Assembly: GCA_963793265.1 (NCBI GenBank)
Contig: CAWBZI010000001.1
Location: 1,184,001-1,248,000 of the forward strand
Reading direction: 5' to 3'
DNA from: an uncultured cyanobacterium
GTDB lineage: Bacteria; Cyanobacteriota; Cyanobacteriia; Phormidesmidales; Phormidesmidaceae
DNA: 64,000 nt
Position numbers and translations under genes: made by a program. The notes beneath the pieces were generated by a model. That model saw nothing but the letters and a program-made list of their open reading frames with translations, made no database searches and had not been told where the DNA came from. This document shows, piece after piece, positions 1 to 64,000 of this stretch (within the stretch, counting starts at the first letter, position 1; each line of letters opens with the position of its first letter).

Positions 1-172
1 TTCGGACTGTTGCTAAATAGCCATTATCGGTATGAATTCATACGTGATACTTAGAAAACACTATGTACTAGCGGTAAAGATTGTGACACGGCCAACAGGT
101 AGCTAAGGTTATATAATTGAGCGCTGATATGTCTTAGCGTATTCGGCACTCATACACCTTAGATGCGAGCTG

Positions 173-1180
173 ATGATCAAACATAACGTAATAGATAAAG
201 GCGTTAGGCCCACTAGCTGCTACCAGCAAAGAATTATCTACAGCGCTAGGGTTTTCGGCATTACGCTGCGCTTAGCCGGAGGCATACTGCTATTAAGCCA
301 GGTGGTTAAAGCGGTCATGTCTATTATGGATGGCGGCGGGATTAGCTTTAGCGTTGCCAGTGCCGCCCTATTTGCTATTCTCCTTTTGATCGTCAGCAGT
401 CGGGCTGTCTTAGAAAAAGCGATCGCGCAATTTGCCACTCGACTACGCCGCACCAGCTTTGCCATTTACCTTTATCTATTTCCGTTTTTGCTCACCGCGT
501 TCATTTTATGGATAAAGTTTAGGGTGGGGTATGAGAGCGATCGCTGGCGATATTTGAGTAGCGAAGGTGGACTCTCTGAGTACGGTACGGCGCTGGCCTA
601 TCTACTCGTGCCTCTCTTTGCCTATCCCGTTTATAAACAGTTTTGGCGGCAAGGCAGGAAGCTCATGGGAGCCTTATATCTCCTATTCGCCGCTGGCGCA
701 TTCTTTGTCGGGATGGAAGAAATTAGCTGGGGCCAAAGAATACTGGGCTTTCAAGAACCTGAGTTTTGGACAAAGCATAACGTTCAGTCAGAATTCACGT
801 TCCACAACTTTGCCTTCTATCAAAACCATCTTCTAAGCCTGAGCTTTCTGGTAGCTGGCTTTGTCGGCTCGTTCTGTTGGATTGTTCTGCGCTACTGGCA
901 GAAGCAAAGAACACCATCACAACAGCCCGCGCTAGATCTCAACTATCTTTTGCCTGACTGGCCGGTATCGTCGTTTTTCTATCCTATATTTCTGTTTTAT
1001 CTAATCATTGACTATACGGCGTTTAGCGATCGCATCCAATTCTTCAACAGCTTCGACCAAGAACACTGGGAACTGGTCATGGGCTTGGGGGTACTGCTAT
1101 TTGCCGTCATCAGTTTCTTTCGTCAGGGTAGAGAGTACGACGCGCTAAACCGTAGTGAAGTCGAGCCCCCATCTTTTTAA
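173..1180 (+). CDS. Conserved hypothetical multi-pass membrane protein (EEISWGQR-motif family)
   Basis: 335-aa ORF with several hydrophobic segments and an EEISWGQR...N.Q.E...HN motif; start codon uncertain. Confidence 0.75.
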   Translation: MIKHNVIDKGVRPTSCYQQRIIYSARVFGITLRLAGGILLLSQVVKAVMSIMDGGGISFSVASAALFAILLLIVSSRAVLEKAIAQFATRLRRTSFAIYLYLFPFLLTAFILWIKFRVGYESDRWRYLSSEGGLSEYGTALAYLLVPLFAYPVYKQFWRQGRKLMGALYLLFAAGAFFVGMEEISWGQRILGFQEPEFWTKHNVQSEFTFHNFAFYQNHLLSLSFLVAGFVGSFCWIVLRYWQKQRTPSQQPALDLNYLLPDWPVSSFFYPIFLFYLIIDYTAFSDRIQFFNSFDQEHWELVMGLGVLLFAVISFFRQGREYDALNRSEVEPPSF

Positions 1181-1225
1181 AACTTCTACTACTCTATATA
1201 GAAGCCCCTAATAGCCTTACCCACC

Positions 1226-2458
1226 GTGCCAACTTCCTCAAAGCAATATACCGCCCGCTGGATGAATCGCCTTGCAGACATTCCATCTGAGCAATGGGAT
1301 GCTATGGCCATGCCTTTACCGACGCCCGCACTAGAGTGGGCCTGGCTCAATAATATGGAAACCTCCGGCAGCACCGGGCCTAAAACGGGCTGGATGCCGA
1401 ACCATTTGACCCTGTGGCACGATGACAGGCTAGTTGCCGCTGCGCCGCTGTATTTGAAAGGGCATAGCTACGGTGAGTTTGTATTCGATCATCAGTGGGC
1501 CGAGCTAGCCGAACGGTTGGGCGTATCCTACTATCCAAAGCTGCTGGGCATGTCGCCTTTTACGCCCGCAGAAGGCTATCGATTTTTGATTGCGCCGACT
1601 GAAGATGAGGCCGAAGTGAGCGCCTTGCTGGTGGGCCTGATTGATGATTTTTGCATTAAGCACGACATTTCGGGCTGCAATTTTTTGTACGTCGATCCTG
1701 AGTGGCAGACGGGCATGGAGGCGTTGGGCTTCAATAAATGGCTGCACCATAGCTACGTGTGGAAAAATCGTGGCTTCAATGACTTTAATGATTATCTAGC
1801 GCAGTTCAATGCGAATCAGCGCCGCAATATTAAGCGCGAGCGTAAGTCTGTAGAGAAGGCAGGCATTCACTTTAAAGTGCATACGGGCGAGAGTCTTACG
1901 CCTGAAATGTGTTTGAAAGTGTATGACTTTTATAGTGATACCTGTGACAAGTTTGGCTGGTGGGGCAGTAAGTACCTTAAGCGTCAGTTCTTTAAGCAGC
2001 TACATCCGGTTTGGAATGATACTCCTTCGGAGTGGCCAGGCCAACGCGTAGTCATTTTCGCCGCCTACACCGAAGACTCTCCCGATCCTGTGGGCATGTC
2101 TTTTTGTTTGACTAAAGGCGATCGCCTCTATGGTCGCTATTGGGGCTCATTTGAGGAATACAACAATCTGCACTTTAGCGCCTGCTATTACGAACCGATT
2201 GAGTGGGCGATCGCGAACGGCATCCAAACCTTTGATCCTGGCGCGGGCGGTCGTCACAAACGCCGTCGCGGCTTTCCGGCCACACCCAACTACAGCCTGC
2301 ACCGATTCTATGCTCGCGACCTTGGCGGCATTCTAGAAAACTACATTGGCCGTATCAACGAAGCCGAACAGTTTCAGATAGACGAAATTAACGCAGACTT
2401 ACCGATTAAGGACTTGCAGGCTGAAGTTCCTTTGATAGAACGAACTAAAAGTCGATAG
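1226..2458 (+). CDS. GNAT/FemAB-like protein (DUF482, peptidoglycan biosynthesis/recognition family)
   Basis: Motifs PLYLKGHSYGEFVFDHQWA, LYGRYWG, LHFSACYY and FDPGAGGRHK. Confidence 0.9.
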   Translation: MPTSSKQYTARWMNRLADIPSEQWDAMAMPLPTPALEWAWLNNMETSGSTGPKTGWMPNHLTLWHDDRLVAAAPLYLKGHSYGEFVFDHQWAELAERLGVSYYPKLLGMSPFTPAEGYRFLIAPTEDEAEVSALLVGLIDDFCIKHDISGCNFLYVDPEWQTGMEALGFNKWLHHSYVWKNRGFNDFNDYLAQFNANQRRNIKRERKSVEKAGIHFKVHTGESLTPEMCLKVYDFYSDTCDKFGWWGSKYLKRQFFKQLHPVWNDTPSEWPGQRVVIFAAYTEDSPDPVGMSFCLTKGDRLYGRYWGSFEEYNNLHFSACYYEPIEWAIANGIQTFDPGAGGRHKRRRGFPATPNYSLHRFYARDLGGILENYIGRINEAEQFQIDEINADLPIKDLQAEVPLIERTKSR

Positions 2459-2837
2459 AAGCAGTAGAACGCTGTAGCCAAAGTGCCAAGTCCTCTTGAG
2501 AATAGACGCCAGTTGCGACAGATAATACGACTGATACTTCCTCGGCTTCTGTAGAAGTCATTTCATATCCGTTGAGATAAAGGAACGCGGCCATTGCAGC
2601 AAGGCCCACTCTTTTGTTGCCATCTATAAAGACGTGGTTTTGAATAAAGCCATAGCCATAGGCCGCTGCTAGATCCCAAATATTTGAGCCTGGGACATAG
2701 TTGAGAAGCGTTTGAGCTTTAAGTAAAGTTGACTCTAACAGTCCTTCTTCTCGAATACCCGAGGTACCGCCATGTTCCGAAATCTGTTGCTGGTGTAACG
2801 CAACAACACCTCGCTTGGTTAAAAAGCGGTAGCTCAC
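2445..2837 (-). CDS. Type II toxin, death-on-curing (Doc/Fic) family
   Basis: HVFIDGNKR Doc-type Fic motif; 130 aa; 4-nt overlap with the upstream antitoxin. Confidence 0.92.
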   Translation of the reverse strand: MSYRFLTKRGVVALHQQQISEHGGTSGIREEGLLESTLLKAQTLLNYVPGSNIWDLAAAYGYGFIQNHVFIDGNKRVGLAAMAAFLYLNGYEMTSTEAEEVSVVLSVATGVYSQEDLALWLQRSTASIDF

Positions 2838-7117: not shown

Positions 7118-10100
7118 TTAGCCCAAGCCGGTTGCGATCGCCTGCACCTGCTCGCTCGTCAGCGCCTGATTAAAAATCTGCACCTCATCCATCGAGCCCA
7201 CTAATCCCTGCGAGCCTTTTCCAATGCCATCGCGAAAGCGAGTTGCCCCGGCAATATTGCCCAAAGCAATGCGATCGCCGTGCCCCCAAAGCTGAGAGCC
7301 CTCGCCGCTACCGATCTTCTCACCGTCCAAATAAGCCGTGAGCGCGTTAGGTTGCAGCGTGCTTCCCCCGTCTAACACCACCGCAACGTGGTGCCAGTCG
7401 CCCGCCGTCACACCATCAGCGGCTATCCAGGTGCCGTTCCAACCGCTCTCTGAATCCGGTCGATTCCAGCCGCCGACGTACAGCTTATCGTCATCTAAGT
7501 AGGCATTGAGCCCTCGCCCGGTGCCGCCTTCTTCATACAGCACTTGCTTGTTAGTATCAGCCGATAGCGCGTCAGCTTTGAACCATAAAGAGAGCGATCG
7601 CTGCGGGTGAATTCCCAAATTAATATCCCTAGAGTTCTTCAGCCGCACGCTGCCCGTCCCGTCCATCTTGAGCCCTTTCGACCCGTTGAGTCCATCCAAA
7701 TGAGCAACTCCATTCCACAGGTCGCCCGCATTATCTTGACCGCTCGTAGAGCTGTCTAGCGCAACGCCTTTGATAATCGACTCGAAGTCAAAGTCAGCAA
7801 TTGGCTCAGCGACATCAACAGGGTTAGGAACGGGTGTTTCTGGAACTGGCGTTTCTGGAACTGGCGTTTCTGGGACTTCTGGAACCTCTGGAACTTCTGG
7901 GACTGGCGGCGTAACTGGCGGAACAGGAACAATCGAATCTTGAGCAAGCTGAAACTCACTATCAGGAAGATTAAACGTAGTCGGCCCGCCCAAACTATTT
8001 GGATCTAGCTCACCTTTATACTCAGCGTCTTCGGCCCACCATTTCTCTTTAAAAGTGACGACAAATGGATACTTCTTAACCTCTCCGGTCACCCGATCCG
8101 AAATGTATTCGTTAATCACAGTGGCATAGGTGCCGTCAGCCAGCGTGTAGTAGCCCTTTCTCTCTAAGAGCGTTCTAATGCCCTGATAGTCAAAAGACAA
8201 ACTTTCATCACCCAGCGGCATCTCAACGGAGCCTAGTGAATCTGTCTTAGTCCCACGAATATCGACATACTTTCCTTGCTCGCTCCCTTCAACGAAAAAG
8301 TCAGCCTGATCGGAAACCTCAAACGTCAGTCTTCCGGGCGTTAGATCCGACTGCTTCAGCCATTCTTCAGGCGGAATATCTATCCCCTTAAGATCTGTAT
8401 TGTTGTTCTTTAGTTCCAGATCAATCCACACCAGCTCTCTATCAGCTAGCTCCGCAGGCCCTTGTCCTACATCCGGCTGAGCGGCAATCCCTTCATTGAA
8501 GCCATCTACCGTCATATTGTTGAATACAAAGTCTTGAACATTCTTCTGTAGCTCAAGACCCTGATTTTTCCATAGCGTAGGATTTTTACTACCAATCAAG
8601 TCAAAATTGTTCAATGTGTAGTGAGAGGTGTACTGAAACTTAGATCCCTTATCGACCTCCCACCCCTTAAAGCCATCCATGACGGTTCTTAAATCGTTCG
8701 TCTGCCGAGGAAAGTCTTTGATTACATGCAGCCCCGTACCCGAAGCAAACACCTCATTGTTCTTAAACCCCTGAATCGGCGGCTGATCGGTATTTACCGT
8801 CTCCCCATCAGGCAGCACCCGCCGCGCTAGCTCTGGCACCGGCAAATCATCAATATCAGCAGGCTTCAGATCAACTCCCCGATGAAAATAGAACATCCCC
8901 GCGTTACGACTGCCCGCCGCCACGTTGCTCTCATTTTCTACTAAGCGACCCTGAAACCAAAAGCCTACACCGGTTCTAGCAAAGTCGTGCGTCCCCGTGC
9001 CCTGCTTCTCAATCACATCATCAATGCCCGGCCCCGTTTTGATCGAAATGTTGTTGCGCATGGCCCCAGTTTCATTTCCGCTCTCAGTTACAAAAGCGCC
9101 GCCGTCCACATCGTAGGCAACATTGTTCTCTAAAATAGCGCTGCTGTCATGCACCACAAAGCCCCAGCCGGGCGAGCCATCGACCACATTGCCCACCATC
9201 ACCGCAGGCTCTCCTTCAGTACCGGAGCGGTGAATATGTGCAGAATAGCGACCGGCAATGTTTTTACGCGCACCAGGGACAGGATTACCCTGTCCGTCTA
9301 GCACCCGCTGAGGATAAGTGCCGCCTGTGTCTTTGAAGTCATCTAACGGCTTCGTTTTATCCGTACGGCCCAAGTCTCGAAACTCAGCGTAGCGAATGTC
9401 TACGTCGTCAGAGTGCATAAACATCGTGTGCCCGCGCTGGCTATTAGGCAAAGCGTCGCCGTTTTCGCTGGCAATCACAATGTTGCGGCTTTGATTGGCA
9501 ACATACGCCTTTAGGTCACCTCTGGGCGTTGTATGGTCAAACTTTAGGGCGCGATCTAGCGTGATGCGCTTGCCTTCAATGCCGGTGACGACAACTTCTT
9601 CGTCTTGAGTCAGCGAATCCCATTTTTGGCCCGCCCGCTCAGAAGGGTACTGCGTGCCAGTGAGAACAAGGCGATCGCCCACCTGCCAATTGACCGGGGC
9701 TGACTGTAGGGAAAGTGTGCGATCGCCCGCCATGGGATCAGCCGCCACCTTTACATGAGAGGTTTTCGCCTGCCCGAACATCTGCACATCGCCGTGAGAG
9801 ATCAGCCCTCTGCTGAGCTGCGTCGGATCCCAATTCAAATCAATTGGGCCATTATCTGCAATCAAGATCTCAGTGGTCACATTGGCCTTTACCGGATCGC
9901 CTTTTGTACCCACCGTCAGCCTACCTTCAGGCGAGACAACAAAAGTATCGATCACCATTTTGGTGTTTTTATCTGTTGCAAACTTAAGCTGACCGTCTAC
10001 ATCGAGGGTAAACAGACGCGCCTCGCTTTGCCCGTCGTAGTTTACGCTAACGCCCTTGCGAATCAATACCTTTGCATTATTACCAGGGACTTTTCCACCC

Positions 10101-10273
10101 TGCCAGGTTGTCGGATCAAACCAGGAGCCGCTTTTAGTAGCGACGTGAGTAGGCGTGCCCGCAGAAACAAGCGCCATTGCCGCGTTATGTTCGGCTTGCT
10201 TAACAGGGCTGTCGGCGTGGGCCTGCATTGCACTGTGAGGTGCAGTGCCTGATTGAGCTGTTGATGCTGCCAT
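7118..10273 (-). CDS. G8-domain / parallel beta-helix protein with Pro-Glu linker and C-terminal LamG-like domain (G8-A)
   Basis: SGSWFDPTTWQGGKVP G8 start; SRNIVI, GHTMFMH, GRYSAHIH and FVTESGNE motifs; WHHVAVV...YLDG...MDEVQIFN LamG. Confidence 0.85.
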   Translation of the reverse strand: MAASTAQSGTAPHSAMQAHADSPVKQAEHNAAMALVSAGTPTHVATKSGSWFDPTTWQGGKVPGNNAKVLIRKGVSVNYDGQSEARLFTLDVDGQLKFATDKNTKMVIDTFVVSPEGRLTVGTKGDPVKANVTTEILIADNGPIDLNWDPTQLSRGLISHGDVQMFGQAKTSHVKVAADPMAGDRTLSLQSAPVNWQVGDRLVLTGTQYPSERAGQKWDSLTQDEEVVVTGIEGKRITLDRALKFDHTTPRGDLKAYVANQSRNIVIASENGDALPNSQRGHTMFMHSDDVDIRYAEFRDLGRTDKTKPLDDFKDTGGTYPQRVLDGQGNPVPGARKNIAGRYSAHIHRSGTEGEPAVMVGNVVDGSPGWGFVVHDSSAILENNVAYDVDGGAFVTESGNETGAMRNNISIKTGPGIDDVIEKQGTGTHDFARTGVGFWFQGRLVENESNVAAGSRNAGMFYFHRGVDLKPADIDDLPVPELARRVLPDGETVNTDQPPIQGFKNNEVFASGTGLHVIKDFPRQTNDLRTVMDGFKGWEVDKGSKFQYTSHYTLNNFDLIGSKNPTLWKNQGLELQKNVQDFVFNNMTVDGFNEGIAAQPDVGQGPAELADRELVWIDLELKNNNTDLKGIDIPPEEWLKQSDLTPGRLTFEVSDQADFFVEGSEQGKYVDIRGTKTDSLGSVEMPLGDESLSFDYQGIRTLLERKGYYTLADGTYATVINEYISDRVTGEVKKYPFVVTFKEKWWAEDAEYKGELDPNSLGGPTTFNLPDSEFQLAQDSIVPVPPVTPPVPEVPEVPEVPETPVPETPVPETPVPNPVDVAEPIADFDFESIIKGVALDSSTSGQDNAGDLWNGVAHLDGLNGSKGLKMDGTGSVRLKNSRDINLGIHPQRSLSLWFKADALSADTNKQVLYEEGGTGRGLNAYLDDDKLYVGGWNRPDSESGWNGTWIAADGVTAGDWHHVAVVLDGGSTLQPNALTAYLDGEKIGSGEGSQLWGHGDRIALGNIAGATRFRDGIGKGSQGLVGSMDEVQIFNQALTSEQVQAIATGLG
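7827..7930 (-). repeat. Coding tandem repeats (9- and 15-bp units) encoding the PEV/PETPV linker of G8-A
   Basis: gtttctggaactggc repeated at 7836 and 7851, followed by 9-bp tctggaac-like units. Confidence 0.85.
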
Positions 10274-10585
10274 AGATATAAAAAACCTGAGAAAACCTGA
10301 AAATTACGTGACTGTCGCAAATACTTTTCAGGTAGATGCTTTACGCTCCCCTCTACTCACGCGCATTACCATGTCAGGATTTATACCCGTAGTTTTCTAT
10401 AGGTGGCAAACCATAAAAATCAATAAATCCTTATGTATCAACAGCTATATACTTTATGAGAATACAAAGAAGTTTTGTTAATAAAACATCAATGTTCTTT
10501 TATCAAAACGTGAGGGGGAAGACCCCTCAATCGCTCTACTGCTGGCCTGTTAAAGGTTGCAAAAGGCAGGCTATTTTTGATGATA

Positions 10586-13144
10586 CTAAACCCCAAACTC
10601 CGAAGTCGCAGAGACTAATTCCTGAGAATTCTTCGTATTCCCTAGCAAATCACTGCTATTTTCCTCCCCAAAAACGAAGCGATCGCTACTATCAACACCC
10701 ATCAAAAGCACATCATTCTGAGACAAATCAGAAGCGTCTGCTAATAGAGCATCGGTATTCATCGCCGCGACTACCGCCGAGCGATCCTGAGAATCAGCCG
10801 AGAGCAAGGCATCGCGATAAAGCAAACTCTCATTCTCCACAGCCACATCTGCACCCAAGCCAACCACATCCGCAGCCGCAACAAGATCAGCCTTTGCGCC
10901 CGGCAGTCGAAACCGACTCCGTGGCAGATTCACCGCTGTCGGCCCGCCCAAACTACTTGGATCTAGTTCTCCTAAATAGCGCGCATTCTCCGTCCATACA
11001 GTCTCCTTAAAGGTCACAATCAGCGGATACTTCTTAGTCTCACCCATCACCCGGTCTGAAACATACTCATTAATCACTGTCGCCCGCCTGCCATCAGGCA
11101 GCGTGTAATAGCCTTTGTTATTAACCAAATTCAGGATGCCTTGATAGTCAAAAGACAAACTCTCTTCACCAAAAGGCATCGCCACCGTTCCTAGCGAATC
11201 GGTCTTGGTACCGCGAACGCTCACAAAGTCGAATTCGCCATTTTCAACTAGAAGATCGGCATTATCAGAAACCGCAAACTCCAATCTCCCAGGCGTTAGG
11301 TCAGACTGATTTAGCCACTCCTCAGGCGGAATGTTGATCCCTTTGAGATCTGTCTGATTATTCTTCAGCGCCAGATCAATCCAAAACAATCCTCTATCAG
11401 CCAGCTCAGCAGTTCCTTGCCCCGTGTCTGGCTGAGCCGCGATTCCCGAGCTAAAGCCGTCTACCGTCATGTTATTAAACACAAAGTCTTGAACATTCTT
11501 TTGCAATTCAAGCCCCTGACTTTCCCACTTAATCTTGTCTTGAGAGCCGATCAAATCAAAGTTGTTCAGCGTGTAGTGAGAGGTGTACTGAAACTTAGAC
11601 CCCTTGTTCACCTCCCACCCCTTAAAGCCATCCATGACAGTCCTCAAGTCGTTCGTCTGCCGAGGAAAGTCTTTAATTACATGCAGCCCCATCCCAGAAG
11701 CAAACACCTCATTGTTCTTAAACCCTTGAATCGGCGGCTGGTCAGTACTAACTGTTTTGCCATCATCTAGCACCCGCCGCGCCAGCTCTGGCACCGGCAA
11801 ATCCTTAATCTCAGCCGGTAGCAAATCAACCCCCCGATGAAAATAAAACATCCCCGCATTACGACTGCCTGCCGCCACGTTGTTCTCATTCTCCATCAGA
11901 CGACCCTGAAACCAAAAGCCCACGCCCGTTCGCGCAAAGTCGTGCGTGCCCGTACCCTGCTTCTCAATCACGCCGTCAATACCCGGCCCCGTTTTAATCG
12001 AGATATTGTTGCGCATCGCCCCGGTTTCATTCCCGCTTTCAGTTACAAAAGCGCCACCATCCACGTCATAGGCCACGTTGTTCTCTAAAATCGCGCTGCT
12101 GTCATGCACCACAAAGCCCCAGCCGGGCGAGCCATCGACCACGTTGCCCACCATTACCGCAGGGGTTCCATCAGTCCCGGCCTTATGCAAATGCACCGCG
12201 TAGCGACCGGCAATATTAGTACGCGCCCCCGGCACAGGATTGCCCTGTCCGTCTAGCACGCGCTGAGGAAACTTACCGCCCGTATCTTTGAAGTCATCCA
12301 GCGGCCTAGTTTTATCCGTACGGCCCAAGTCTCGAAACTCAGCGTAGCGAATATCCACATCGTTAGTATGCATAAACATGGCGTGCCCACGATGAGAAAT
12401 TGGTGAGGCTTCACCGCTTTCACTCGCGATCGCAATATTCCGGCTCTGGTTAGCCACATACGCTTTCAAATCCCCTCTCGGCGTCGTATGGTCAAACTTT
12501 AGCGGGCGATCCAACGTAATTTGGTTACCCTCAATCGCAGCGATCGCAACCTCTTCATCCTGCGTGCGCGCCTCCCACTGCTGCCCTGCTAGCTCAGCCG
12601 GATACTTCGTGCCCGTGAGCACCAGGCGATCGCCCGCCCGCCAGTTTGCCGGAGCTGATTGGAGAGAAAGTGTGCGATCGCCCGCCCTCGGATCAGCCGC
12701 CACCTTCACATGAGACGTTTTTGCTGCCCCGTGCATTCTCACCTTTCCTGCCGACACCAGCCCGCGCCCTAGCTGCTGCGGATCGCGGCCCAAATCCAGC
12801 GGCCCATTATCTGCAATCAAAATCTCAGCTTTGGCCGTCACCGGGTTCTGCTCAGTGCCGATCTCTAGCTGCCCGCCCATCGCCACCACCACCGTATCCA
12901 CCACCATTTTGGTATCAACTGCGGTCGCAAACCTGAGCTGCCCGTCTACATCAATCGTGTCGAGACGAGCATCGCTTTTGCCGTTATAAGTTACGCTGAG
13001 GCCCTGTGCGATCGCTACTTTTGCCCCGTTGCCTGGCACCACGCCCCCTTGCCACGTTGCTGGATCAAACCAAACTCCGCTGCGCTGCGCCACGTGCGTA
13101 GGCTGACCTAAATTAAAAGCATCAATCCCGTTTGCCATTGCCAT
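10586..13144 (-). CDS. G8-domain / parallel beta-helix protein, tandem paralog lacking LamG, with acidic tail (G8-B)
   Basis: Colinear with and very similar to 7118..10273 over about 750 aa; diverges after SLGGPT. Confidence 0.85.
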   Translation of the reverse strand: MAMANGIDAFNLGQPTHVAQRSGVWFDPATWQGGVVPGNGAKVAIAQGLSVTYNGKSDARLDTIDVDGQLRFATAVDTKMVVDTVVVAMGGQLEIGTEQNPVTAKAEILIADNGPLDLGRDPQQLGRGLVSAGKVRMHGAAKTSHVKVAADPRAGDRTLSLQSAPANWRAGDRLVLTGTKYPAELAGQQWEARTQDEEVAIAAIEGNQITLDRPLKFDHTTPRGDLKAYVANQSRNIAIASESGEASPISHRGHAMFMHTNDVDIRYAEFRDLGRTDKTRPLDDFKDTGGKFPQRVLDGQGNPVPGARTNIAGRYAVHLHKAGTDGTPAVMVGNVVDGSPGWGFVVHDSSAILENNVAYDVDGGAFVTESGNETGAMRNNISIKTGPGIDGVIEKQGTGTHDFARTGVGFWFQGRLMENENNVAAGSRNAGMFYFHRGVDLLPAEIKDLPVPELARRVLDDGKTVSTDQPPIQGFKNNEVFASGMGLHVIKDFPRQTNDLRTVMDGFKGWEVNKGSKFQYTSHYTLNNFDLIGSQDKIKWESQGLELQKNVQDFVFNNMTVDGFSSGIAAQPDTGQGTAELADRGLFWIDLALKNNQTDLKGINIPPEEWLNQSDLTPGRLEFAVSDNADLLVENGEFDFVSVRGTKTDSLGTVAMPFGEESLSFDYQGILNLVNNKGYYTLPDGRRATVINEYVSDRVMGETKKYPLIVTFKETVWTENARYLGELDPSSLGGPTAVNLPRSRFRLPGAKADLVAAADVVGLGADVAVENESLLYRDALLSADSQDRSAVVAAMNTDALLADASDLSQNDVLLMGVDSSDRFVFGEENSSDLLGNTKNSQELVSATSEFGV

Positions 13145-22882: not shown

Positions 22883-22950
22883 CTTTATATCTACAGATTC
22901 TCTCAGAAATCATCACATTATCTGTAGTTAACGGCTACCGCCCAAAAGAA

Positions 22951-32395: not shown

Positions 32396-32739
32396 AGCGT
32401 CTCCGAGTTCTAGATAAATATGCAGGCGTTAGAACGCAGACTAAATAGTGGCAGAAGAGAAATACACATCGGTGGCACTACTCACAAAGATTGATGTCTG
32501 TTAGCAAAAGTTTTTGAAGGGTTTGTAGGGGTTCATATTTAGGGGCGCTTGGTTGGCAGGTTGCGCGATCGCCTTCATGCAATTCAAAAACCGTCCACTT
32601 CCCTATATGACCGCTGTTCTCGCAGTGTTAGACGTAATATAAGAAAAGCGTCGCATTCCAAAGCTGCTGCGCTTAACTTCATGAAGTAACATCACATTCT
32701 GTTTAAAGCCACATTTTTTGTTTGAGGAGTCGTAGCGAA

Positions 32740-44065: not shown

Positions 44066-44118
44066 GCGGCCTGTATCTCTTTTCTATGGGGGGGAGAAAT
44101 GCAGGTCGTTTTCTTTTT
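44066..44118 (+). terminator. Probable terminator after G8-C
   Basis: GCGGCCTGTAT...ATGCAGGTCGT hairpin followed by TTTCTTTTT. Confidence 0.6.
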
Positions 44119-44169
44119 ACGGTTCGGCAAAGACCTATCATTTTAGAAAGTGCATTGTTGGGGGTCGCT

Positions 44170-45699
44170 ATGACGAGTTTTCGTGAAGAGCTGAGTTTAC
44201 TGGTGCGATCGCGCTACCCTCTCATCTACATCCCCACCCGCGAAGAAGAACGCGCCGAAGTCGGCATTGCCCAGTGCGCTCAAGATATTGGCGATCGCAC
44301 CGTCTACACCTGGGACTACGTAGACGGCTACCAGGGCAACCCCACCGACAGCGGCTTCGGCAAGCGTAACCCGCTTCAAGCCCTAGAACTCATCGAAAAA
44401 GTCCCATCCTCAGCCGCCGCCCTTTTCGTTCTACGCGACTACCACCGCTTTTTAGACGACATTGCCATCTCTCGCAAGCTCCGCAATCTCCTCAAGCTGC
44501 TCAAATCCCAGCCCAAAAACGTCATCATTCTCTCTGCTACCCTCGCCATTCCAGACGAACTCAGCAGCAGCATCACCGTTCTAGAATTTCCCCTGCCTGA
44601 TAAGGCCGAAATTCGTACCGAAGTCGAAAAGATTCTCAGCGTCACCGGCTCCACCCTCTCTGCGCGCGACACCGACGAACTCGTTCGCTCCTGTCAGGGT
44701 CTTGCCCTAGAGCGCATCCGCCGAGTTCTTGCGCGTGGTATCGCCGCCCATGGCACCTTCGAGCCCGACGATATTGATCTGATTCTCGAAGAAAAACGGC
44801 AGACCATTCGCCAAACGCAGATTCTAGAGTTCTACCCCGCTGCCGAAAAGATCTCGGATATTGGCGGACTCGATAATCTCAAAGACTGGCTGCTCAAGCG
44901 CGGCGGTGCCTTTTCAGAGAAAGCTCGGCAGTATGGGCTACCGCACCCGCGCGGGCTCATGCTAGTGGGGATTCAAGGCACTGGAAAGTCACTGACTGCA
45001 AAGGCGATCGCCCACCACTGGCACCTCCCGCTTCTCCGCCTGGATGTCGGCAGACTCTTCGGCGGCCTCGTGGGCGAATCCGAATCGCGCACCCGCCAGA
45101 TGATCCAGCTTGCCGAAGCCCTTGCCCCCTGCATCCTCTGGATCGACGAAATCGACAAAGCCTTTGCGGGTTTCGATGGCGGCGGCGATTCCGGCACCAC
45201 CAGCCGCGTATTTGGCACCTTCATCACCTGGCTTGCCGAAAAATCCTCTCCTGTCTTCGTCGTTGCCACGGCTAACAACATCCAATCGCTCCCTCCCGAA
45301 ATGCTTCGCCGGGGCCGCTTCGATGAAATCTTCTTCGTCGGCCTCCCCAGCCAGCCCGAGCGCGAAGCCATCTTCAACGTCCACCTCGCGCGCTTGCGCC
45401 CGCACAACCTGCCCGCCTACGATCTCAAGCGCCTCGCCTACGAAACCCCCGACTTCTCTGGCGCAGAAATAGAGCAGGCCCTAATCGAAGCCATGCACAT
45501 TGGCTTCAGCCAAAACCGTGACTTCACCCACGACGACGTACTCGAAGCCGTCAGCCAGATCATCCCGCTTGCCCGCACTGCCCAAGAGCAAATCGAAGCC
45601 CTCCAGAACTGGGCCGCATCCGGCAAAGCCCGTCTCGCCTCTCGCCAAACCCCACTTTCTGAACGCATCGAACAGCAGCGAAAAGCTGATAGTCCCTAG
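44170..45699 (+). CDS. ycf46: Ycf46-family AAA+ ATPase
   Basis: [33 protein letters not shown] and [10 protein letters not shown] at 44170. Confidence 0.92.
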
Positions 45700-48981: not shown

Positions 48982-50121
48982 ATGGATACCGTTACGACAA
49001 CCTTAAAAGAGATTTTTCAATTTGATAGAGAATTTCAGCTCTTCCTCATTCGACTAGGGCTTCAATTAGGACTCTTCTTAATCTTTGTTCTAGTCTCACT
49101 CTTCATCGGCCGCTACACGCCTACCTTTGTCCGATTTATTCTACGCAAAGTCGCCTCAGATCGCGTCTCAGACCTCTATGTCAACTTCGTCAAACCAATC
49201 GAGCCGCTATTTCGCACCGCTGGATCGCTGATTCTGATATCTCTTAGTTTAAGCCTGCTGAGAGAATACGAAGGGATATATAGGTTTCTTGGCTTCTTCG
49301 TTACACTAGCCACCTTTATCAGTATCGCGTGGCTAGCATCACGTTTATTCCGCCAGTTTGTTCGCATCTATGGCATCGATCTGGTTCGTCGCCTCAACCT
49401 GGAAGTCGATGAAATGCTGCTGGTAGTTGAAACGCTAATGAACGTGGTGATTGGCCTAGTTGCAGTAATTGCCTTTGCGCAGAATCAGGGCGTAAGTTTA
49501 GTCGGCTTGGTAGCAGGCTTTGGTATTGGCGGTGCTGCGATCGCCTTCGCCGCTCAAAAAACCCTCGAACAGCTCCTCGGCACCGTTGTCCTCTACCTCG
49601 ATCGCCCCTACGTCCCCGGCGATCACATCCGAGTCAGCCTAAACCCACATGCCGAAGACGTATACGGTCGCATTGAATCGATTGGCCTACGATCTACCAA
49701 GCTTCGCACGGCGGCCAAAAGTACGCTGGTAATTATCCCCAACTCAACCATGGCGAACTTAGATATTGAGAACATCACGCGCGGGAAAAAGGTGATGGTG
49801 TTGATTTATCTAGACTTTGTTCGAGAGTTGGTAGAGAGGGAGCGATCGCTTGTTGAACAAGTTGTCAAAGAAAGCACCGATTCTCTTTTTGGCATCGACC
49901 CAGGCAGCACCAAAGTCAGCCTCTACCACATAGACAATCGCCCTGGCACCCGTGCTAGAGTCACCTTCTTCATCTTAGGCTCCAGTGAAAACTCCATCCA
50001 GCTCCGCAAACGCCTGCTCGAACTCGCCAACGCCACCATGGCCAAAAAGCTATCCGAATACAACATAAAATTCACCGTAGAAGACCCCACCATCTACGTC
50101 GATTCTCCCGTAACTATCTAG
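48982..50121 (+). CDS. MscS-family mechanosensitive channel (tandem paralog)
   Basis: GIGGAAIAFAAQKTL and GRIESIGLRST; same C-terminal VDSP.TI; ATG at 48982. Confidence 0.92.
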   Translation: MDTVTTTLKEIFQFDREFQLFLIRLGLQLGLFLIFVLVSLFIGRYTPTFVRFILRKVASDRVSDLYVNFVKPIEPLFRTAGSLILISLSLSLLREYEGIYRFLGFFVTLATFISIAWLASRLFRQFVRIYGIDLVRRLNLEVDEMLLVVETLMNVVIGLVAVIAFAQNQGVSLVGLVAGFGIGGAAIAFAAQKTLEQLLGTVVLYLDRPYVPGDHIRVSLNPHAEDVYGRIESIGLRSTKLRTAAKSTLVIIPNSTMANLDIENITRGKKVMVLIYLDFVRELVERERSLVEQVVKESTDSLFGIDPGSTKVSLYHIDNRPGTRARVTFFILGSSENSIQLRKRLLELANATMAKKLSEYNIKFTVEDPTIYVDSPVTI

Positions 50122-53443: not shown

Positions 53444-55621
53444 CTACTGCTGCGGGATTTGAATAGTAAAAGTGGTGCCCGAGCCGATAGCCGAGTTGCA
53501 AATTAGCGAACCACCGTGCCGTTCTGTCACAATCTGATAGCTGATAGAAAGCCCCATCCCGGTACCTCTCCCGATTGGCTTGGTCGTGAAGAATGGATTG
53601 AATATTTGCGATCGCACATCCTCCGCCATCCCCGCACCATTATCACCAATACTGACGCTAAGCTGCCCCGCCATAAAATCAGTCGAAATCACCAGTTGAG
53701 GCTGATCAATCCCTTCTAGAGCATCAATACCGTTACCGATAATATTCATAAATACCTGATTGAGCTGCCCGGCATAGCACGTTACCAGCGGCAGCTCGCC
53801 ATAGCGCCTCACCACCTCAATCTCGCCACGATGATTCTGAGCCTTGAGCTGATGCCCTAAAATCATCAGCGTACTGTCTAGCCCTTGGTGAATATCCACC
53901 GCCTTTTGCTCCGCCTCATCTTTTCGAGAAAACGTCCGCAGCGAAGAAACAATCTGCCGAATTCGCTCCGCACCTAGCTTCATAGAAGCCAGCAAGTTCA
54001 ATAAATCCTCAGTGATAAAGTCAAAATCAAGCTCTTCTAGCTCTTCTAAGATTGCTTCAGGCGGATCTGGATATTGCGCTTGATAAAGCTTTAGCAGCCC
54101 TACCAGGCTATTTGCATACCGAGTAGCAGGCTTCACATTGCCATAAATAAAGCTCACAGGATTGTTGATCTCATGGGCTACGCCTGCCACAAGCTGCCCT
54201 AAACTAGACATTTTTTCAGTTTGTACTAAGCGAGTTTGCGCCTGCTGCAATTCACAAAAAGCCTGCTCTAAGTCTTTAGCCTGCTGCATCAAACACAGCT
54301 CGGCCCGCTTGCGCTCAGTAATATCATTGTGGATAGCCACATACTGATAAGGGCATCCGGCCTCATCCAAGAACGGCACAATGGTGGTGTACACCCAGTA
54401 GAGATTGCCATTTTTAGCCTGGTTTCTCATCTCGCCTAGCCAAACGTGGCCCGTGCTAATGGTGTGCCACATCTCCTCAAAAAACTCGCGCGGGTGATAG
54501 CTAGAGTTAACCAGACGATGGGTCTGCCCAATGAGTTCAGCCTGATTGTATTTAGAGATTTCACGAAACTTGTCATTGACGTAGGTAATGCGTCCTCGAT
54601 GGTCAGTAATCGCCACGTTTGAAGAGCAGTCCAGTGCAAACTTAACGTCAGCGAGTTCTTTGAGTGACTGATTTAACTGGGCTTCGATTTGTTTGCGATC
54701 GCTAATATCACTCAAGCACCCATACCAAACAATCGAACCATCCGCCTGCGGCTGCGGCTTAGCCAGCGTCCGCACCCACCGCGTCCGCCCCGAAGGCAGC
54801 ACAACCCGACACTCATACTGATACACCTTCAGCGTCAGCGCCGAGGCTCTAACCGCCGCCTTAAATCCCTGCCGCTCACTCTCATGAACCAGCTTGAGCA
54901 TCTCTACCCCCCGCGACTGAAACTCCTCCGGCGACAGGCTTAGCAATCGGTAGCTATCTGAGGAGACATAGGGAAAAGAGACTTCTGAATCACCGCTAAG
55001 CCGCATTTCATAGAGCAAATCTGGCACATTGTCGGCCAGTTTTTGCAGGCGAGTTTGGCTCACTGCTAGCTCAGCCGTACGCGCCTCTAACCGACTAGAT
55101 AGCAGATGATTGAGCTGCTTGGTTTCAATCTCCGACTGCTTGTGTATCGTAATATCTTGAGCTAGCGCGTTCCACAGGATAGTGAGCGGATCGAATTGCT
55201 CAGGGGCAGGCTGCATCGTCAGCGCGATCCATTTTATCTTTTGGTTGGGTAGCACTATTCGTCCTTCCCATTCCCAAAGCCGGGGGAGCTGAGCCGCCCG
55301 TTTCATTGCTAGCTCAAAAGACGCGCGATCTTCTAGGTGGATAGCGTCAAATAGGCAGTGGGATAGGTGTTTTAGCGCTTTGATGTGGCTTGATGGTTGA
55401 GCGATCGCAGGCTCTAGCAGTTTGTAGCAGCCCGCACCAATATATGGATAGGCAACAGCCACCCCTTCTCGCGTCGTCACCACCTGAGAAACTGCCCCAG
55501 GGATGCTGTCCATCCAGCGCTGAAAGTCATCAGGTAGATCGTTACTGCGTAGAGATTCAGGGTCGATCTGAGTAGGCGGAATAGAAGCTTTCATCGGGGG
55601 GTATCTGAAGAGAGAAACCAC
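53444..55621 (-). CDS. Multi-PAS sensor histidine kinase
   Basis: Three PAS/PAC units, [20 protein letters not shown] and [14 protein letters not shown]. Confidence 0.92.
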
Positions 55622-56406: not shown

Positions 56407-59400
56407 TCAGCTCTCGTCAATTACAGCATCGCGGTCTAGCAATAGCAAATTACGTAACTGATCGGTATCTAGTTCAGTGAGCCACTGTTCACCTGCACCG
56501 ACAACTTGCTCAGCAAGTGCCTTCTTACTGTTGATCATGTCATTGATTCGTTCTTCTAGGGTGCCAGTGGTAACGAATTTGTGGACTTGGACGTTTTTGG
56601 TTTGGCCGATGCGGAAGGCGCGGTCTGTGGCTTGATTTTCTACGGCGGGGTTCCACCAGCGGTCGAAGTGGAAGACGTGGTTGGCGCGGGTGAGATTGAG
56701 GCCGACGCCGCCTGCTTTAAGGGAGAGAATGAAGATTTTGGGGCCGTTAGGATCGAGCTGGAATCGGTCTACCATTTCTTCTCGTTTGGGCTGAGAGGTG
56801 CTGCCGTAAAGGAATTGGGTTTGAGTGCCCAAGCGATGTTCTAAATGGGTAGATAACAACTTTCCCCACTCGGCAAACTGCGTGAAGATTAAGGCGCGAT
56901 CGCCCTCTGCAACAACTTCTTCTAACATCTCATCCAAACGCTGCAATTTACCCGAACGCTGAGACTTCCCTAAGCTATCTTGCTTAAGAAACTGCGCGGG
57001 ATGATTGCAAATCTGTTTGAGTTTCACTAGCAGTCCTAAGATCATGCCGCGTCGCTGAACGCCCGTAGCCTCGTCAATCTCTCCTAATGTCTCATCTACT
57101 AGCTTTTGATAAAGCTTGGCCTGCTCGGCAGTGAGTCCACAAAAAACAGTCATCTCCTGCTTGTCGGGCAGGTCTTGGATGATAGTGCGGTCGGTTTTGA
57201 GACGGCGCAGAATGAAGGGTTGGACAAGCGATCGCAATGTCTTCAGCGAATCTGTATCGCCATACTTCTCAATCGGCGTTGCAAACCGTCGCTTAAAGAA
57301 GTTCAGTGGTCCCAAATAGCCAGGATTCAAGAAATCCATAATCGCCCACAGCTCAGAAAGCCGGTTCTCTACAGGCGTACCCGTTAGCGCCACGCGAAAC
57401 TCACTTTCTACCTCGCGCACTGCCAAAGACTGCTTAGCCGTTGGGTTCTTGATATTCTGCGCCTCATCAAGCACCATCCCTCGCCACTCAATCTTTTTAA
57501 GATCCTTCAAGTCTCGCTGCACCAGCGTATAGCTCGTAATCACCAAATCTAGCTTTTCAGTCGCCTCAACAAGCGCTGTCCCTTTGGGCCGCTTATCGCC
57601 GTGATAAATCAAAGTCCTTAGCTCAGGGCCAAACTTTTTCACCTCACGCTGCCAGTTTGTGAGTACAGAAGTCGGGCATACCAACAAGGTCGGCCCACCT
57701 AAAGCCTTTTCTTGCTTGAGATACAGCAAAAACGCAATGAGCTGAATCGTCTTACCCAAGCCCATATCATCGGCCAGGCAAGCCCCAAGCCCCCACTGCT
57801 CCAGAAACGAAAGCCAGGAAACCCCTTTCGCCTGATAAGGCCGTAGCTGCCCTTCAAAACCATCAGGCTCCTCAATTGCCGTTAGGCTCTGGTTGCCTGT
57901 CGTCATGGTTGTGATCAGCTCATCCAACTTGCCAGAAGCATCAAACTTCACAACCGGCAGCTTATCGATAAGCTGGTTATCACCTGTACTAATACGCAAA
58001 GCTTCCTCTACTGAAAGCTTTGTTTGCCCCTTACGTTTCTCAAAGAACTCTTTAGCCGCTCGCACATCCTGCGGACGCAGCTCAATCCACTGGCCATTAA
58101 TCTCAACCAGTGGCGTACCTTGAGTAATCAGATCGTCAAACTCCGCCTTAGTTAGAATCTGACCGCCGACAGATAGATCCCACTTGAAGTTCAACAAGCT
58201 TTGCAGGCCCAATCGCTGCTGCTTAGGTGGCGCGGTTGCACTGATTTGTAGCCCTAATCGGCTAGCGCCTACTTTACTAGGATCTACCAAATTGTCGGGC
58301 AAAATTACGCCAAAGCCGCTGTCCTGAAGCCGCCAGGCGGTAGCCTTAATGAACTGATAAGCCTCGATAGGATCTAGAACGCACTGAGTCGGGCTGGGGT
58401 CTGTGAGGGTTTGCTTGATAGGTTCGTATAGGCGAGTAGCCCGGCCTAAGCCGCCTAGCAGAGTTTCTTGAGGCGCTTCTATGGCTCTGCCTTCATAGGT
58501 GATTTCGTCGGCAGGGTTTTGCCAAACCGTTTCGGCGTCTACCTTAAAGTCGCCGTCGTCAATGGCTTGTAGGCCGTAGGAAAGCGTCCAGTTTAGCGTG
58601 CCTGATGGGGGCGGGGTGAGTGAAAAGCAGGTGCGGAAGCCGTGGATTTTGTCAGCCAGGTTTTGCAGCGGCGCTGTCCAGGTGTTGATGGCATCGTTGA
58701 GGCGGACGACGCCTGTAGGGGTGGACTCAAAGTGAGGATCTGGTGCGGCTAGTGCCTCTAACCATTCGTGTAGGGGGAGGTCTTTGCTTAGGGCAGCAGC
58801 GCTAGGCGTTTCGTTACTTTGAGCGGCGCTGCGGACTTGAGCATCAACGAGCGTTTCGAGAAAGTTGCGGACTAGGGGATCAACAGAATCGGGGAGATCG
58901 ATGCGGAAGGGGGAGACTTTTTTGGGGGCTGAGGCTGGGTAGCTGCGGCAGACTAGGGGGAGGCGATCGCAAAATTCCTTCAGCCGAGCCTGATCCAGCG
59001 CACTATCTAACAAAAGCTGCCACGCCGCCAAAGCCCCTTTTTTATCGGCACTTACGACCGGCACAAACTTGCCTCGCGCCAGCAAATCTAAGCACCAGCG
59101 GGTTAGGTGCGACCAGTAGCGCAAATCATCACCGACAAAAGCACTCGCTTCTGACTGGCCCAGCGGTAGTGCTGTGAGAAATTTCGTGGTTGTCAGCGGA
59201 TCTATCAGTCCGCCCGAGATTTGCCACGGGTAGAGCACGGCTGATGATTCTTCTGAAGCTTGCTCGGTTGCAGGGAAGCGATCACCCGCCGACAGCACAG
59301 GCAGCATCCCATCATCATCAAACATAGTTGGTAATACAACCACCCGAGACTGCCAGTCCTTCGAGCCAGCTTTACTCGCTTTAGACTGACGAGTCTTCCC

Positions 59401-61420: not shown

Positions 61421-61430
61421 GGCTTGTCAC

Positions 61431-62685: not shown

Positions 62686-62733
62686 GCGTTAGCCATTGAG
62701 ATACAGTCAGCAGCAGTTGAGATTGAAGGAAAG

Positions 62734-63375
62734 ATGGTAGGGACACCGCCCGCGCAGACACCCACGCAAACACTGGTGCTGCCAAGATTGATTGTGGGCT
62801 TGGGAAATCCAGGCGCTAAGTATGACCGGACACGTCACAATATTGGCTTTGAGGTGATTGATGCGATCGCTAAAACCTACCCAGACGTTTCCCTCACAGA
62901 AAACAAGCGGTTCCAGGGTGCCACAGGCGAATTTCGGAATGGGGGCGATCGCACCGTTCTCCTCAAGCCCACCACCTACATGAACAAGTCAGGCCAGGCT
63001 GTCCGCGCCGTGCTCGACTGGTACAAGCTAGACCCTGCCTCAGTGCTCGTGGTGTACGACGATATGGATTTACCCACTGGCAAGCTGCGCCTACGCCTGA
63101 CAGGTGGAGCCGGTGGGCACAACGGCATGAAGTCGATTATCGCTCACTTAGGCACAAAGGATTTTCCTCGGCTGCGCGTTGGCATTGGTAGCACCGATAA
63201 AGGCGAGGAACGTGATAGCGCAGTTGTCTCTCACGTGTTAGGCCGCTTTGCCCCAGAGGATAGAAAGATCGTTGATGCGGTAATTCCGATGGCAGTCGAT
63301 GCGATTGACTTGAGCCTGCGTAAGGGATTTGAGCGCTCAATGAATTTGTATAACGGGCGAGAGGTAGAGATTTAA
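62734..63375 (+). CDS. pth: Peptidyl-tRNA hydrolase
   Basis: LIVGLGNPG.KY..TRHNIGF, KPTTYMN.SG and GGHNGMKSI. Confidence 0.96.
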   Translation: MVGTPPAQTPTQTLVLPRLIVGLGNPGAKYDRTRHNIGFEVIDAIAKTYPDVSLTENKRFQGATGEFRNGGDRTVLLKPTTYMNKSGQAVRAVLDWYKLDPASVLVVYDDMDLPTGKLRLRLTGGAGGHNGMKSIIAHLGTKDFPRLRVGIGSTDKGEERDSAVVSHVLGRFAPEDRKIVDAVIPMAVDAIDLSLRKGFERSMNLYNGREVEI

Positions 63376-63740
63376 GGCGGCGCTTGGTCTTGAGAACGCT
63401 GATAGAAGAGAATACCAACCCGACGGATATGGTCTACAACGTCAGGATTATCAATATGGCTGAGAATAGAGATATCAAAGAGGTAGGGCAGCAGTAAATC
63501 GTCTATTTCATTTTCTAGACGGCTGATAATTCGGTAAGTTAGCTGCGTTCCCGTCAAAGTCAAATCAATGTCTGAGCCAGGACGATACCTGTTCATAGCT
63601 CTTGATCCATAAAGAATCGCAGACTCTACTTCAGGATAGTGAGAAAAAACGTCTGTGATTTTAGTAATCACTGATTCTTTTAGCCCAAACCGCTTCGGTG
63701 TTTCGCCAAATGTTTTTGAATCTGATGAGATAGGCGGCAT
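63372..63740 (-). CDS. Minimal nucleotidyltransferase (MNT) antitoxin
   Basis: LYGSRA...GSDIDL motif; follows a HEPN gene. Confidence 0.9.
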   Translation of the reverse strand: MPPISSDSKTFGETPKRFGLKESVITKITDVFSHYPEVESAILYGSRAMNRYRPGSDIDLTLTGTQLTYRIISRLENEIDDLLLPYLFDISILSHIDNPDVVDHIRRVGILFYQRSQDQAPP

Positions 63741-63745
63741 CTCAG

Positions 63746-64000
63746 TTATTCCTCATCTGCATTTGAGATTTTCTGCATCTTCGACTGCAGAGCAATAAAT
63801 TTCTCAAAGTAGCTTTCTGCAACGCTAGTTGCGATTTCTCTAGCAGTATCGCGGTTGTAGGTATGGCTCGTCCGATTGCGGTCTTTGATCATCTTCATCC
63901 AAGCTTCGCCATCTTCAATCAGGCCCAGCGTAAAGGCAGTTCGAGTGGCATCTTTAGATCCGTAGATATCGTTTCGGCCCCGGCTACTCAGAAAAGATTT
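63746..64000 (-). CDS. HEPN-domain toxin / nucleotidyltransferase substrate-binding protein (5' end outside the window)
   Basis: ...GSKDATRTAFTLGLIEDGEAWMKMIKDRNRTSHTYN...EE*; RNRTSH is the RxxxxH HEPN motif. Confidence 0.88.
   Translation of the reverse strand, partial: KSFLSSRGRNDIYGSKDATRTAFTLGLIEDGEAWMKMIKDRNRTSHTYNRDTAREIATSVAESYFEKFIALQSKMQKISNADEE

Follow-up and report, generated by a model that had tools for sequence, protein, structure and literature searches.

The window, the whole 64-kb stretch of DNA analysed, contains 75 copies of the HIP1 palindrome (GCGATCGC), many of them within genes of either orientation (Table 1). At 67 of the 75 the plus strand goes from G-rich to C-rich, judged by a larger (G-C) in the 40 nt to the left of the site than in the 40 nt to the right. 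This fraction (0.89) exceeds any obtained in 2,000 draws of 75 random positions (mean 0.46, maximum 0.64); the flip, which the first-pass annotation had described from sites picked by eye, is thus not a product of the selection bias suspected there. The five G:C counts made by hand at 58963, 49537, 44205, 54695 and 62863 are exact at their coordinates (21:6/6:13, 14:6/7:16, 14:6/8:16, 8:4/2:12 and 7:1/3:11), and the sites named without counts, 19395, 24266, 52117 and 56896, lean in the direction given, with (G-C) left minus right of 8, 18, 15 and 8, respectively. Pfam agrees with the earlier gene labels for SNF2, MscS, the histidine kinase and peptidyl-tRNA hydrolase; the gene labelled ycf46 matched AAA families only. 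This AAA ATPase gene, carrying HIP1 44205 and 44291, served as the query for related loci. The eight non-conforming sites are 2118, 2207, 5079, 5958, 9671, 10679, 12626 and 41890. Two of these, 9671 and 12626, are the left members of closely spaced pairs and would fit an overlap of opposing HIP1 arms.

Table 1. HIP1 sites of the window, the genes in which they lie and the base counts beside them.
Feature	Span	HIP1 site(s)	Location or remark	G:C in 40 nt, left and right
HIP1 with ~100-nt arms	58863..59070	58963-58970	SNF2 helicase gene (Pfam), minus strand	22:6 left, 6:13 right
HIP1 with arms	49437..49644	49537-49544	MscS channel gene (Pfam), plus strand	15:6 left, 6:18 right
Two HIP1	44105..44398	44205, 44291	AAA ATPase gene, plus strand	12:6/6:17 and 12:12/11:13
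HIP1	54595..54802	54695	PAS histidine kinase gene (Pfam), minus strand	10:5 left, 2:14 right
Two HIP1	62763..63052	62863, 62945	pth gene (Pfam), plus strand	11:7/6:13 and 16:8/5:16
HIP1	22703..22910	22803	strongest G/C switch of the window; absent from the first-pass picks	13:4 left, 3:20 right
HIP1	32465..32672	32565	strong switch, outside the gene calls made here	17:5 left, 3:14 right
HIP1	19295..19502	19395		(G-C) left minus right = 8
HIP1 pairs, spacing 48 nt	9671..12681	9671/9719, 12626/12674	two similar minus-strand genes	

The genome has 6,888 HIP1 sites, of which 86% are positive at 1–40 nt (z ~76). Genome-wide, the antisymmetric skew at 11–50 nt is 0.154 ± 0.002 for GC and 0.057 ± 0.002 for TA. 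HIP1 is mostly genic (6,130 sites in scored genes), and the intergenic sites (n = 533) show 0.14 at 11–20 nt. Comparison with control octamers, as suggested in the first-pass annotation, shows the effect to be specific to HIP1. The 118 other palindromic octamers with at least 40 copies each have no footprint (mean −0.004, SD 0.02), and the largest value among them belongs to ATCGCGAT, which overlaps HIP1. The GATC control hexamers TGATCA, AGATCT and GGATCC, and CGATCG outside HIP1, are at most 0.014 from zero genome-wide. Hairpins, inverted repeats and repeats are ruled out by the sites with unique flanks (6,858 of 6,886 HIP1), where the skew is unchanged at 0.157, and by the arms, which show no excess of arm-to-arm complementarity around HIP1 of the kind that marks an inverted repeat or small mobile element. 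Both arms of the footprint are found in each 150-kb bin of the genome and are equal in regions of negative (1.07/−1.04), near-zero (0.98/−0.98) and positive (0.93/−0.92) background skew, a weak skew whose classes do not denote fork direction; dependence on the replichore is thereby ruled out.

The footprint is greatest at four-fold degenerate sites, where protein constraint is absent. Within 1–10 nt of HIP1 in plus-strand genes, these sites have G 0.48 and C 0.11 on the 5′ side and C 0.49 and G 0.11 on the 3′ side; minus-strand genes show the same pattern. The antisymmetric skew holds within each of eight codon families and is not explained by amino-acid context. The earlier description, G/T-rich against C/A-rich, is correct for G and C (5′-minus-3′ shift in ln(G/C) of 1.80), but the T/A part is small (0.16 in ln(T/A)). 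Codon positions 1 and 2 shift too; V, G and E are raised 5′ of HIP1, and T, I, P, N and H are raised 3′ of it, shifts that resemble the differences between leading and lagging strands. On a logit scale the kernel is 1.7 at 3–9 nt, 0.52 at 70–109 nt, 0.07 at 700–999 nt and ~0.015 at 1,500–2,200 nt, a decay over ~70 nt plus a tail near 1 kb. The short (~70 nt) component arises from the nearest HIP1 only, a second HIP1 behind a nearer one adding −0.21 ± 0.10 of the 70-nt term as compared to 1.15 ± 0.02 for the nearer. All 32 trinucleotide contexts carry the footprint, with G runs not preferred, which rules out UV or a mutation tied to a single context. Flank positions 1–9 carry extra signal. Beyond 12 nt from HIP1 there is no power at 10–11 nt, and the helical phasing of the flanks expected of an extended consensus for protein binding or uptake is rejected there. 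The bias on one side of the palindrome mirrors that on the other, whichever strand the gene lies on and whatever the background skew.

HIP1 is the cause of the footprint: when two relatives are compared at 212 orthologous positions with HIP1 in only one of them, the carrier has a value of 0.401 ± 0.023 and the non-carrier of 0.002 ± 0.024. In an age series with HIP1 in three, two, one or none of three relatives, the values are 0.45 (116 sites), 0.34 (22), 0.18 ± 0.12 (15) and 0.03 (24). One-mismatch variants, another comparison proposed earlier, fall into two kinds. First-position variants have no footprint; both arms persist equally in the C-to-T variant GTGATCGC (0.128/0.127, 494 sites), which looks fossil-like. 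The equality of these arms rules out that GTGATCGC mimics a half-methylated site, for which one arm is expected. The seven-base GCGATCG forms ACGATCGC, CCGATCGC and TCGATCGC have arms of −0.03 to 0.02 (146, 183 and 108 sites) and may be too young.

Among the HIP1-rich genomes sampled, 66 of 70 show the same lean. The footprint is reversed in two genomes (G133 and G157) and absent in G023. A genome screen at a single position can miss a footprint: G151 gave −0.019 in this screen, but 0.051 ± 0.012 over 10–48 nt. The alternative palindrome of G021, GGGATCCC, has no footprint at 10–48 nt (−0.017 ± 0.013, 161 sites in 120 kb). Values for plasmids are too weak for a footprint to be called (Synechocystis pSYSM, −0.016 ± 0.023; Nostoc 7120 alpha, 0.055 ± 0.031; PCC 7002 pAQ7, 0.032 ± 0.020). 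mutS1 is over the cut-off in 63 and mutL in 64 of 66 genomes. Both also occur in genomes with a null or reversed footprint, and the presence of mutS1, mutL or recJ does not discriminate strong, null and reversed genomes. Among five genomes, mutY over the cut-off is missing in G133 alone. In this genome, the C-terminal part of MutL carries motifs that we take to resemble those of the endonuclease. A conserved orphan m5C methyltransferase, with a putative CGATCG specificity, occurs in this genome and in 35 of 66. Neither methylase family has a match in G023, which is footprint-free. The footprint-positive G068, G047, G077, G169 and G109 have no close m5C methyltransferase match, in a search that could miss m4C enzymes.

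Substitution rates on the strand 5′ of HIP1 (165 genes) were expressed as multipliers relative to positions far from HIP1. A>G (1.81), C>T (1.35), C>G (2.58) and T>G (2.02) rise, and G>A (0.79), T>C (0.50), G>C (0.10) and G>T (0.34) fall. A>C, A>T and C>A are also up on this strand, noisily; the A>C multiplier is 1.8 (SE 0.35 in log), not the decrease predicted by simple strand replacement. Divergence at four-fold sites is alike near and far (0.26–0.39 by bin vs 0.32). With some rates raised and others lowered, neither added mutagenesis nor protection gives a good fit by itself; rise-only models are clearly worse, and a reduction-only model is worse by 43.5 log units (20–67). Among the reduced models, the best fit comes from a general 1.7-fold increase in rates combined with protection of four of them. 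An additive fixation-bias model with three parameters fits on par with strand replacement (−4.6 log units, gene bootstrap −15 to 6). Singleton changes at 22 Nostoc loci and four others show no asymmetry in an underpowered comparison (log SE ~0.26). The metagenome loci considered for within-species polymorphism belonged to diverse taxa, not to strains.

These data point to DNA repair or gene conversion that begins at HIP1 and runs in one direction. The footprint is probably a long-term substitution bias from local strand replacement, in which excision and resynthesis starting at HIP1 replace the strand 3′ of the nearest site. A mismatch or lesion near HIP1 would be the trigger. A nick at HIP1 in the strand that has the site on its 5′ side (Y) would be followed by 5′-to-3′ excision of this strand and its resynthesis on the other strand, which lies 5′ of HIP1 (X); wrong bases in Y would be erased and those in X fixed. 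The mismatches could come from replication errors, deaminated bases or a recombination heteroduplex, formed between chromosome copies or with incoming DNA, the last case being polarised gene conversion. MutS and an endonuclease-type MutL might act together with a HIP1 reader, and the much larger G/C than T/A effect would mirror MutS preferences, an argument made after seeing the data. MutS recognises G.G well and C.C very poorly; the same source states that no ranking of its preferences is generally agreed (PMC4417165). One-sided repair that is correctly directed but makes errors in resynthesis would account for the same data. We raise only tentatively the possibility that the repaired strand is set by geometry and not by newness, with a mismatch or heteroduplex near HIP1 resolving toward the strand 5′ of the site. 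The first-pass annotation had proposed a HIP1-anchored process, either nicking with directional excision and resynthesis or transient ssDNA, that leaves a polar footprint. An anchored, polar footprint at the level of substitutions is supported, with control octamers, repeats, replichore and amino-acid context excluded as its source, and nicking with directional excision and resynthesis appears the best reading. Transient ssDNA is less supported as the sole cause: the 5′-side strand has lowered rates of G>A, T>C, G>C and G>T, and the shift in T/A is far below that in G/C.

One form of the ssDNA explanation makes HIP1 a break or Chi-like site, where 5′ to 3′ resection exposes the 5′-side strand to damage and miscopying. 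The geometry is the same as around human meiotic hotspots, and the clear increases in C>T, C>G and A>G on the 5′-side strand agree with the C>N and A>N changes described there (PMC7615360). HIP1 also boosts natural transformation up to ~100-fold, but this effect persists after deletion of addAB (10.1101/2024.09.10.611283). A model in which only C>N and A>N rise lies 58 log units below the mismatch-pair model; leaving a common scale free narrows the gap to 25 (9 to 41). Together with the drop of T>C, the 2.0-fold climb of T>G and a divergence near HIP1 about equal to that far from it, this makes breaks an unlikely explanation. Weak selection for G 5′ and C 3′ of the site, for example for the loading of a protein or translocase at HIP1, is described by the fixation-bias model (~+1 for G, −0.9 for C), and selection acts on HIP1 itself (PMC5861425). 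However, gene conversion yields identical equations without selection. The decay is smooth out to more than 1 kb with no 10–11 nt periodicity, all trinucleotide contexts are affected with neither G-run preference nor excess arm complementarity, and the effect peaks where protein constraint is missing; we consider selection quite unlikely.

Chromosome replication, through priming, pausing or fork convergence at HIP1, would match the terminus-like polarity (G-rich then C-rich) and the leading/lagging character of the amino-acid shifts. It is disfavoured because a process linked to the nascent strand should favour one arm, whereas the arms are equal across the background-skew classes (weak, and not by fork direction) and both present in every bin. 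The 70-nt scale is also far under that of a replichore, and a replicative origin is very improbable. It is scarcely credible that the pattern results from the picking of sites by eye, from the amino-acid context, from repeats or hairpins, or from HIP1 being born in pre-existing skew switches. The genic location of most HIP1 and the shift of codon positions 1 and 2 would allow it, but the all-site counts, control octamers, four-fold sites in eight codon families and unique flanks oppose it, and the comparison of carriers with non-carriers refutes it.

Strand replacement from HIP1 has features in common with several known systems. The hypothesis of Elhai, mismatch repair directed by G-meC together with a ratchet, explains the gain of HIP1; it likewise has MutS/MutL take their strand cue from HIP1 and postulates an enzyme that nicks, and its reach of ~1,000 nt is comparable to the long tail found here (PMC4390886). 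It differs in having no polarity, in giving no description of a skew in the flanks in the text consulted, where 'skew' and 'asymmetr' have 0 matches (PMC4390886), and in that seven-base forms with one GC end are without footprint here. E. coli Dam/MutHLS shares the palindromic methylated site, the excision tract and resynthesis, and MutS and MutL are present here. Unlike that system, MutH was found in 0 of 5 genomes (the positive control matched E. coli only), GATC hexamers are footprint-free, and the effect is one-sided, with no net fall of divergence near the site. Human meiotic break hotspots are also rotationally symmetric about a motif, with C>N and A>N up on one flank strand, and have programmed breaks, a kilobase scale, off-centre peaks and mutation enrichment (PMC7615360). 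The HIP1 footprint, in contrast, peaks at the motif, has a ~70-nt scale and shows a fall in the complementary changes. In replication GC skew, G-rich and C-rich strands switch at the origin and terminus. HIP1 has the terminus-like sign and similar amino-acid shifts, but gives thousands of switches per genome that are far steeper than the skew of the genome itself and do not depend on the background skew. Very-short-patch repair by Vsr/Dcm also sets out from a motif with a methylated cytosine and fills its patch in the 5′ to 3′ direction, as proposed for HIP1. However, Vsr was found in 0 of 5 genomes, and the HIP1 effect spans all contexts and hundreds of bases.

The HIP1 flank footprint was not found in the literature searched. 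To our knowledge, HIP1 has been without an agreed function for three decades. The polar, lineage-tracking footprint shows action on DNA outward from HIP1, with a defined strand and distance. HIP1 function becomes testable, since there are side-specific predictions for single experiments. The footprint is also a quantitative trait across genomes, and the null and reversed lineages help in the hunt for the responsible protein. In cyanobacteria this local effect exceeds the replication skew of the genome and confounds analyses of codon usage, GC skew and synonymous rates. If the repaired strand is indeed set by geometry, each cyanobacterial chromosome would hold thousands of miniature polarised gene-conversion centres, steering silent sites and amino-acid composition; we know of no other bacterium with site-directed biased conversion of this form, and the effect of HIP1 on transformation would be connected with its genome-wide signature.

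The G000 assembly of the source cyanobacterium (5.68 Mb, seven contigs) contains 6,888 sites of the palindromic octamer HIP1 (GCGATCGC); the named loci closest to the window are Phormidesmis-like (protein identity 88–91%). The first-pass annotation had claimed a local switch from G/T-rich to C/A-rich at HIP1. Its five hand counts of G and C match our recount exactly, and the G-to-C switch has the claimed direction at 67 of 75 window sites, compared with a fraction of 0.46 (mean; maximum 0.64) at random positions. Over the whole genome, the antisymmetric skew 11–50 nt from HIP1 (positive when the 5′ side is G-rich) is 0.154 ± 0.002 for GC and 0.057 for TA. Control octamers, which the annotation had proposed as a check, lack the effect: the mean over 118 other palindromic octamers is −0.004, and for CGATCG outside HIP1 the value is 0.006 ± 0.006 (n = 530 sites). 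Among the 24 one-mismatch variants checked, signal is found at GTGATCGC/GCGATCAC (0.12), weakly at GCAATCGC/GCGATTGC (0.05) and, on a single strand, at GAGATCGC (0.055, weak); it is absent from the others. Flanks are unique at 6,858 of the 6,886 sites, and this subset gives the same footprint; complementarity between the two arms is not above chance. Regions observed alongside are collected in the table.

Features located in G000 and in the window
Feature	Location	Strand	Observation
Orphan m5C methyltransferase, conserved	C4:631026-632336		
Region with weak arms	C2:1-150000		Arms 0.06/-0.09, weaker than rest of genome; possibly recently acquired DNA
Two adjoining large genes	window 7118-13144	minus	Near-identical segments around HIP1 pairs 9671/9719 and 12626/12674, which suggests tandem paralogs
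Dense difference patches	window 33171-33252, 34616-34727, 35507-35812, 45730-45884		80-300 nt, against close strains (public runs; 40 of 361 differences listed); about 2 differences per 1,000 in long pieces alongside; suggests short recombination tracts

The amino acids encoded beside HIP1 are themselves biased, with V, G and E enriched upstream and T, I, P, N and H downstream. Protein context is rejected as the cause, as four-fold, two-fold and intergenic sites all shift. A hexamer-scored ORF finder called 4,950 genes, and codon analyses were limited to ORFs scoring at least 30. On the sense strand, four-fold sites 1–10 nt upstream of HIP1 have G 0.48 and C 0.11, and those 1–10 nt downstream C 0.49 and G 0.11, with about 0.25 and 0.29 far away. 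The shift is the same in both gene orientations, is found in eight of eight codon families and recurs at two-fold positions and at 533 sites in intergenic DNA. Every one of the 32 trinucleotide contexts is affected (log odds 0.74–1.73); ln(G/C) moves by 1.80 and ln(T/A) by only 0.16. A logistic fit to 411,148 four-fold G/C sites gave a kernel (logit) of 1.7 at 3–9 nt, 1.05 at 20–39 nt, 0.52 at 70–109 nt, 0.22 at 160–229 nt, 0.07 at 700–999 nt and about 0.015 past 1,500 nt, equal between arms and across three background-skew classes and free of helical periodicity. The 70-nt term is due to the nearest HIP1 only (1.15 versus −0.21 ± 0.10 for the site behind); the 900-nt term passes a nearer site in part (0.45 versus 0.20).

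The direction of cause was examined in 513 best-hit ortholog pairs of G000 and a second cyanobacterium, G004, omitting very long pairs and sites with gaps, low identity or a second HIP1 within 100 nt. At 212 positions where HIP1 is intact in one genome and has at least two mismatches in the other, the footprint is 0.401 ± 0.023 in the carrier versus 0.002 ± 0.024 in the non-carrier; at HIP1 common to both it is 0.50. In G004, G007 and G009 it grows with the number of genomes having the site. The footprint therefore accumulates following HIP1 gain. Non-carriers with the C-to-T form of HIP1 retain 0.51 ± 0.06 (n = 17 sites), and thus the footprint survives HIP1 loss for a time.

The phylum was screened through 151 genomes by counting G against C at position −13, balanced over reading frames; 62 with almost no HIP1 were left out. 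HIP1-poor genomes pool to 0.022 ± 0.017 (19 genomes). HIP1-rich genomes are positive in 66 of 70 cases, 55 of them with z > 3 in 20 of 24 families, related genomes not being independent. Among loci around one gene, the footprint is positive in 72 of the 79 named and 58 of the 69 metagenome loci that could be scored. G090, G096, G099, G105, G108, G111 and G114 (families f38 and f39), HIP1-rich and outside the window's class, have the same sign with z > 5, several with 5–7% tabulated contamination. Two of the 70, G133 and G157, are negative (z about −5); each has one recJ match. In G133 (loci L095 and L161–L172), the footprint is reversed within about 70 nt over 260 kb, HIP1 flanks extend to GGCGATCGCC in 94%, and mutY has no match over the cut-off. 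G023 (L177–L180) has very dense HIP1 and a footprint near zero over 80 kb; two DNA methylase families searched there gave no match. G151 is weakly positive.

Substitution rates were fitted to 165 three-way orthologs from a single genus (about 86% identity, 28,792 synonymous sites). Of these sites, 13,824 lie within 300 nt of HIP1 common to all three, those near unshared HIP1 being left out; the model is stationary and non-reversible, with background rates taken as equal near and far. On X, the strand 5′ of HIP1 (Y is its complement), the rate multipliers next to HIP1 are above 1 for C>G (2.58), T>G (2.02), A>G (1.81) and C>T (1.35) and below 1 for G>C (0.10), G>T (0.34), T>C (0.50) and G>A (0.79); A>C, A>T, C>A and T>A lie within 2 standard errors of 1. 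An underpowered Nostoc replicate gave no asymmetry.

We consider it fairly probable that strand replacement produces the footprint. Near HIP1, Y would be recopied from X, so that errors in Y would be lost and errors in X fixed; this recopying predicts the kind of pattern fitted on X, raised changes with their complements lowered. Reductions-only and increases-only models fall 43.5 and 49 log units below the sum-conserving model, gene-bootstrap intervals excluding zero in both cases, and single-strand-damage changes alone also fit more poorly. Additive fixation bias, mismatch-pair conversion and a general 1.7-fold rise with four changes protected fit indistinguishably from the sum-conserving model. 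Under strand replacement, a mismatch would be the start point of an outward search to the nearest HIP1, which would fit the nearest-site-only 70-nt term. In a passage of PMC4417165, MutS prefers purine–purine to pyrimidine–pyrimidine mismatches, with G.G and A.A among the best, T.T reasonable and C.C very poor; repair tracking these preferences would, in a fit made after the fact, give the largest G/C and smallest T/A shift, as observed. MutS1 and MutL are nearly universal across the genomes searched; MutH and Vsr each have no match in five genomes. G173 has a footprint of 0.108 and no mutS1 match over the cut-off, although in about 90 contigs the gene may be missed. The orphan m5C methyltransferase of G000 is a putative CGATCG enzyme because of its distribution and the GTGATCGC excess. 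G000 has about seven C5 methyltransferase loci and strongly avoids several palindromic hexamers: at distances above 300 nt from HIP1 there are 3 copies of GGCGCC, 5 each of CCCGGG and GCCGGC, and 6 of GAGCTC.

The polar footprint is apparently undescribed so far. Searched for skew and asymmetry, PMC4390886, PMC5861425 and PMC13756078 yielded no passage on either at HIP1 flanks, and PMC4390886 gives a palindromic extension of 1–2 nt only; the palindrome's full names and skew terms have no joint mention among the matches listed. No prior account was found, though supplements, subscription journals or the 1990s HIP1 papers could hold one. The footprint is real, strong and widespread, and it is caused by HIP1.
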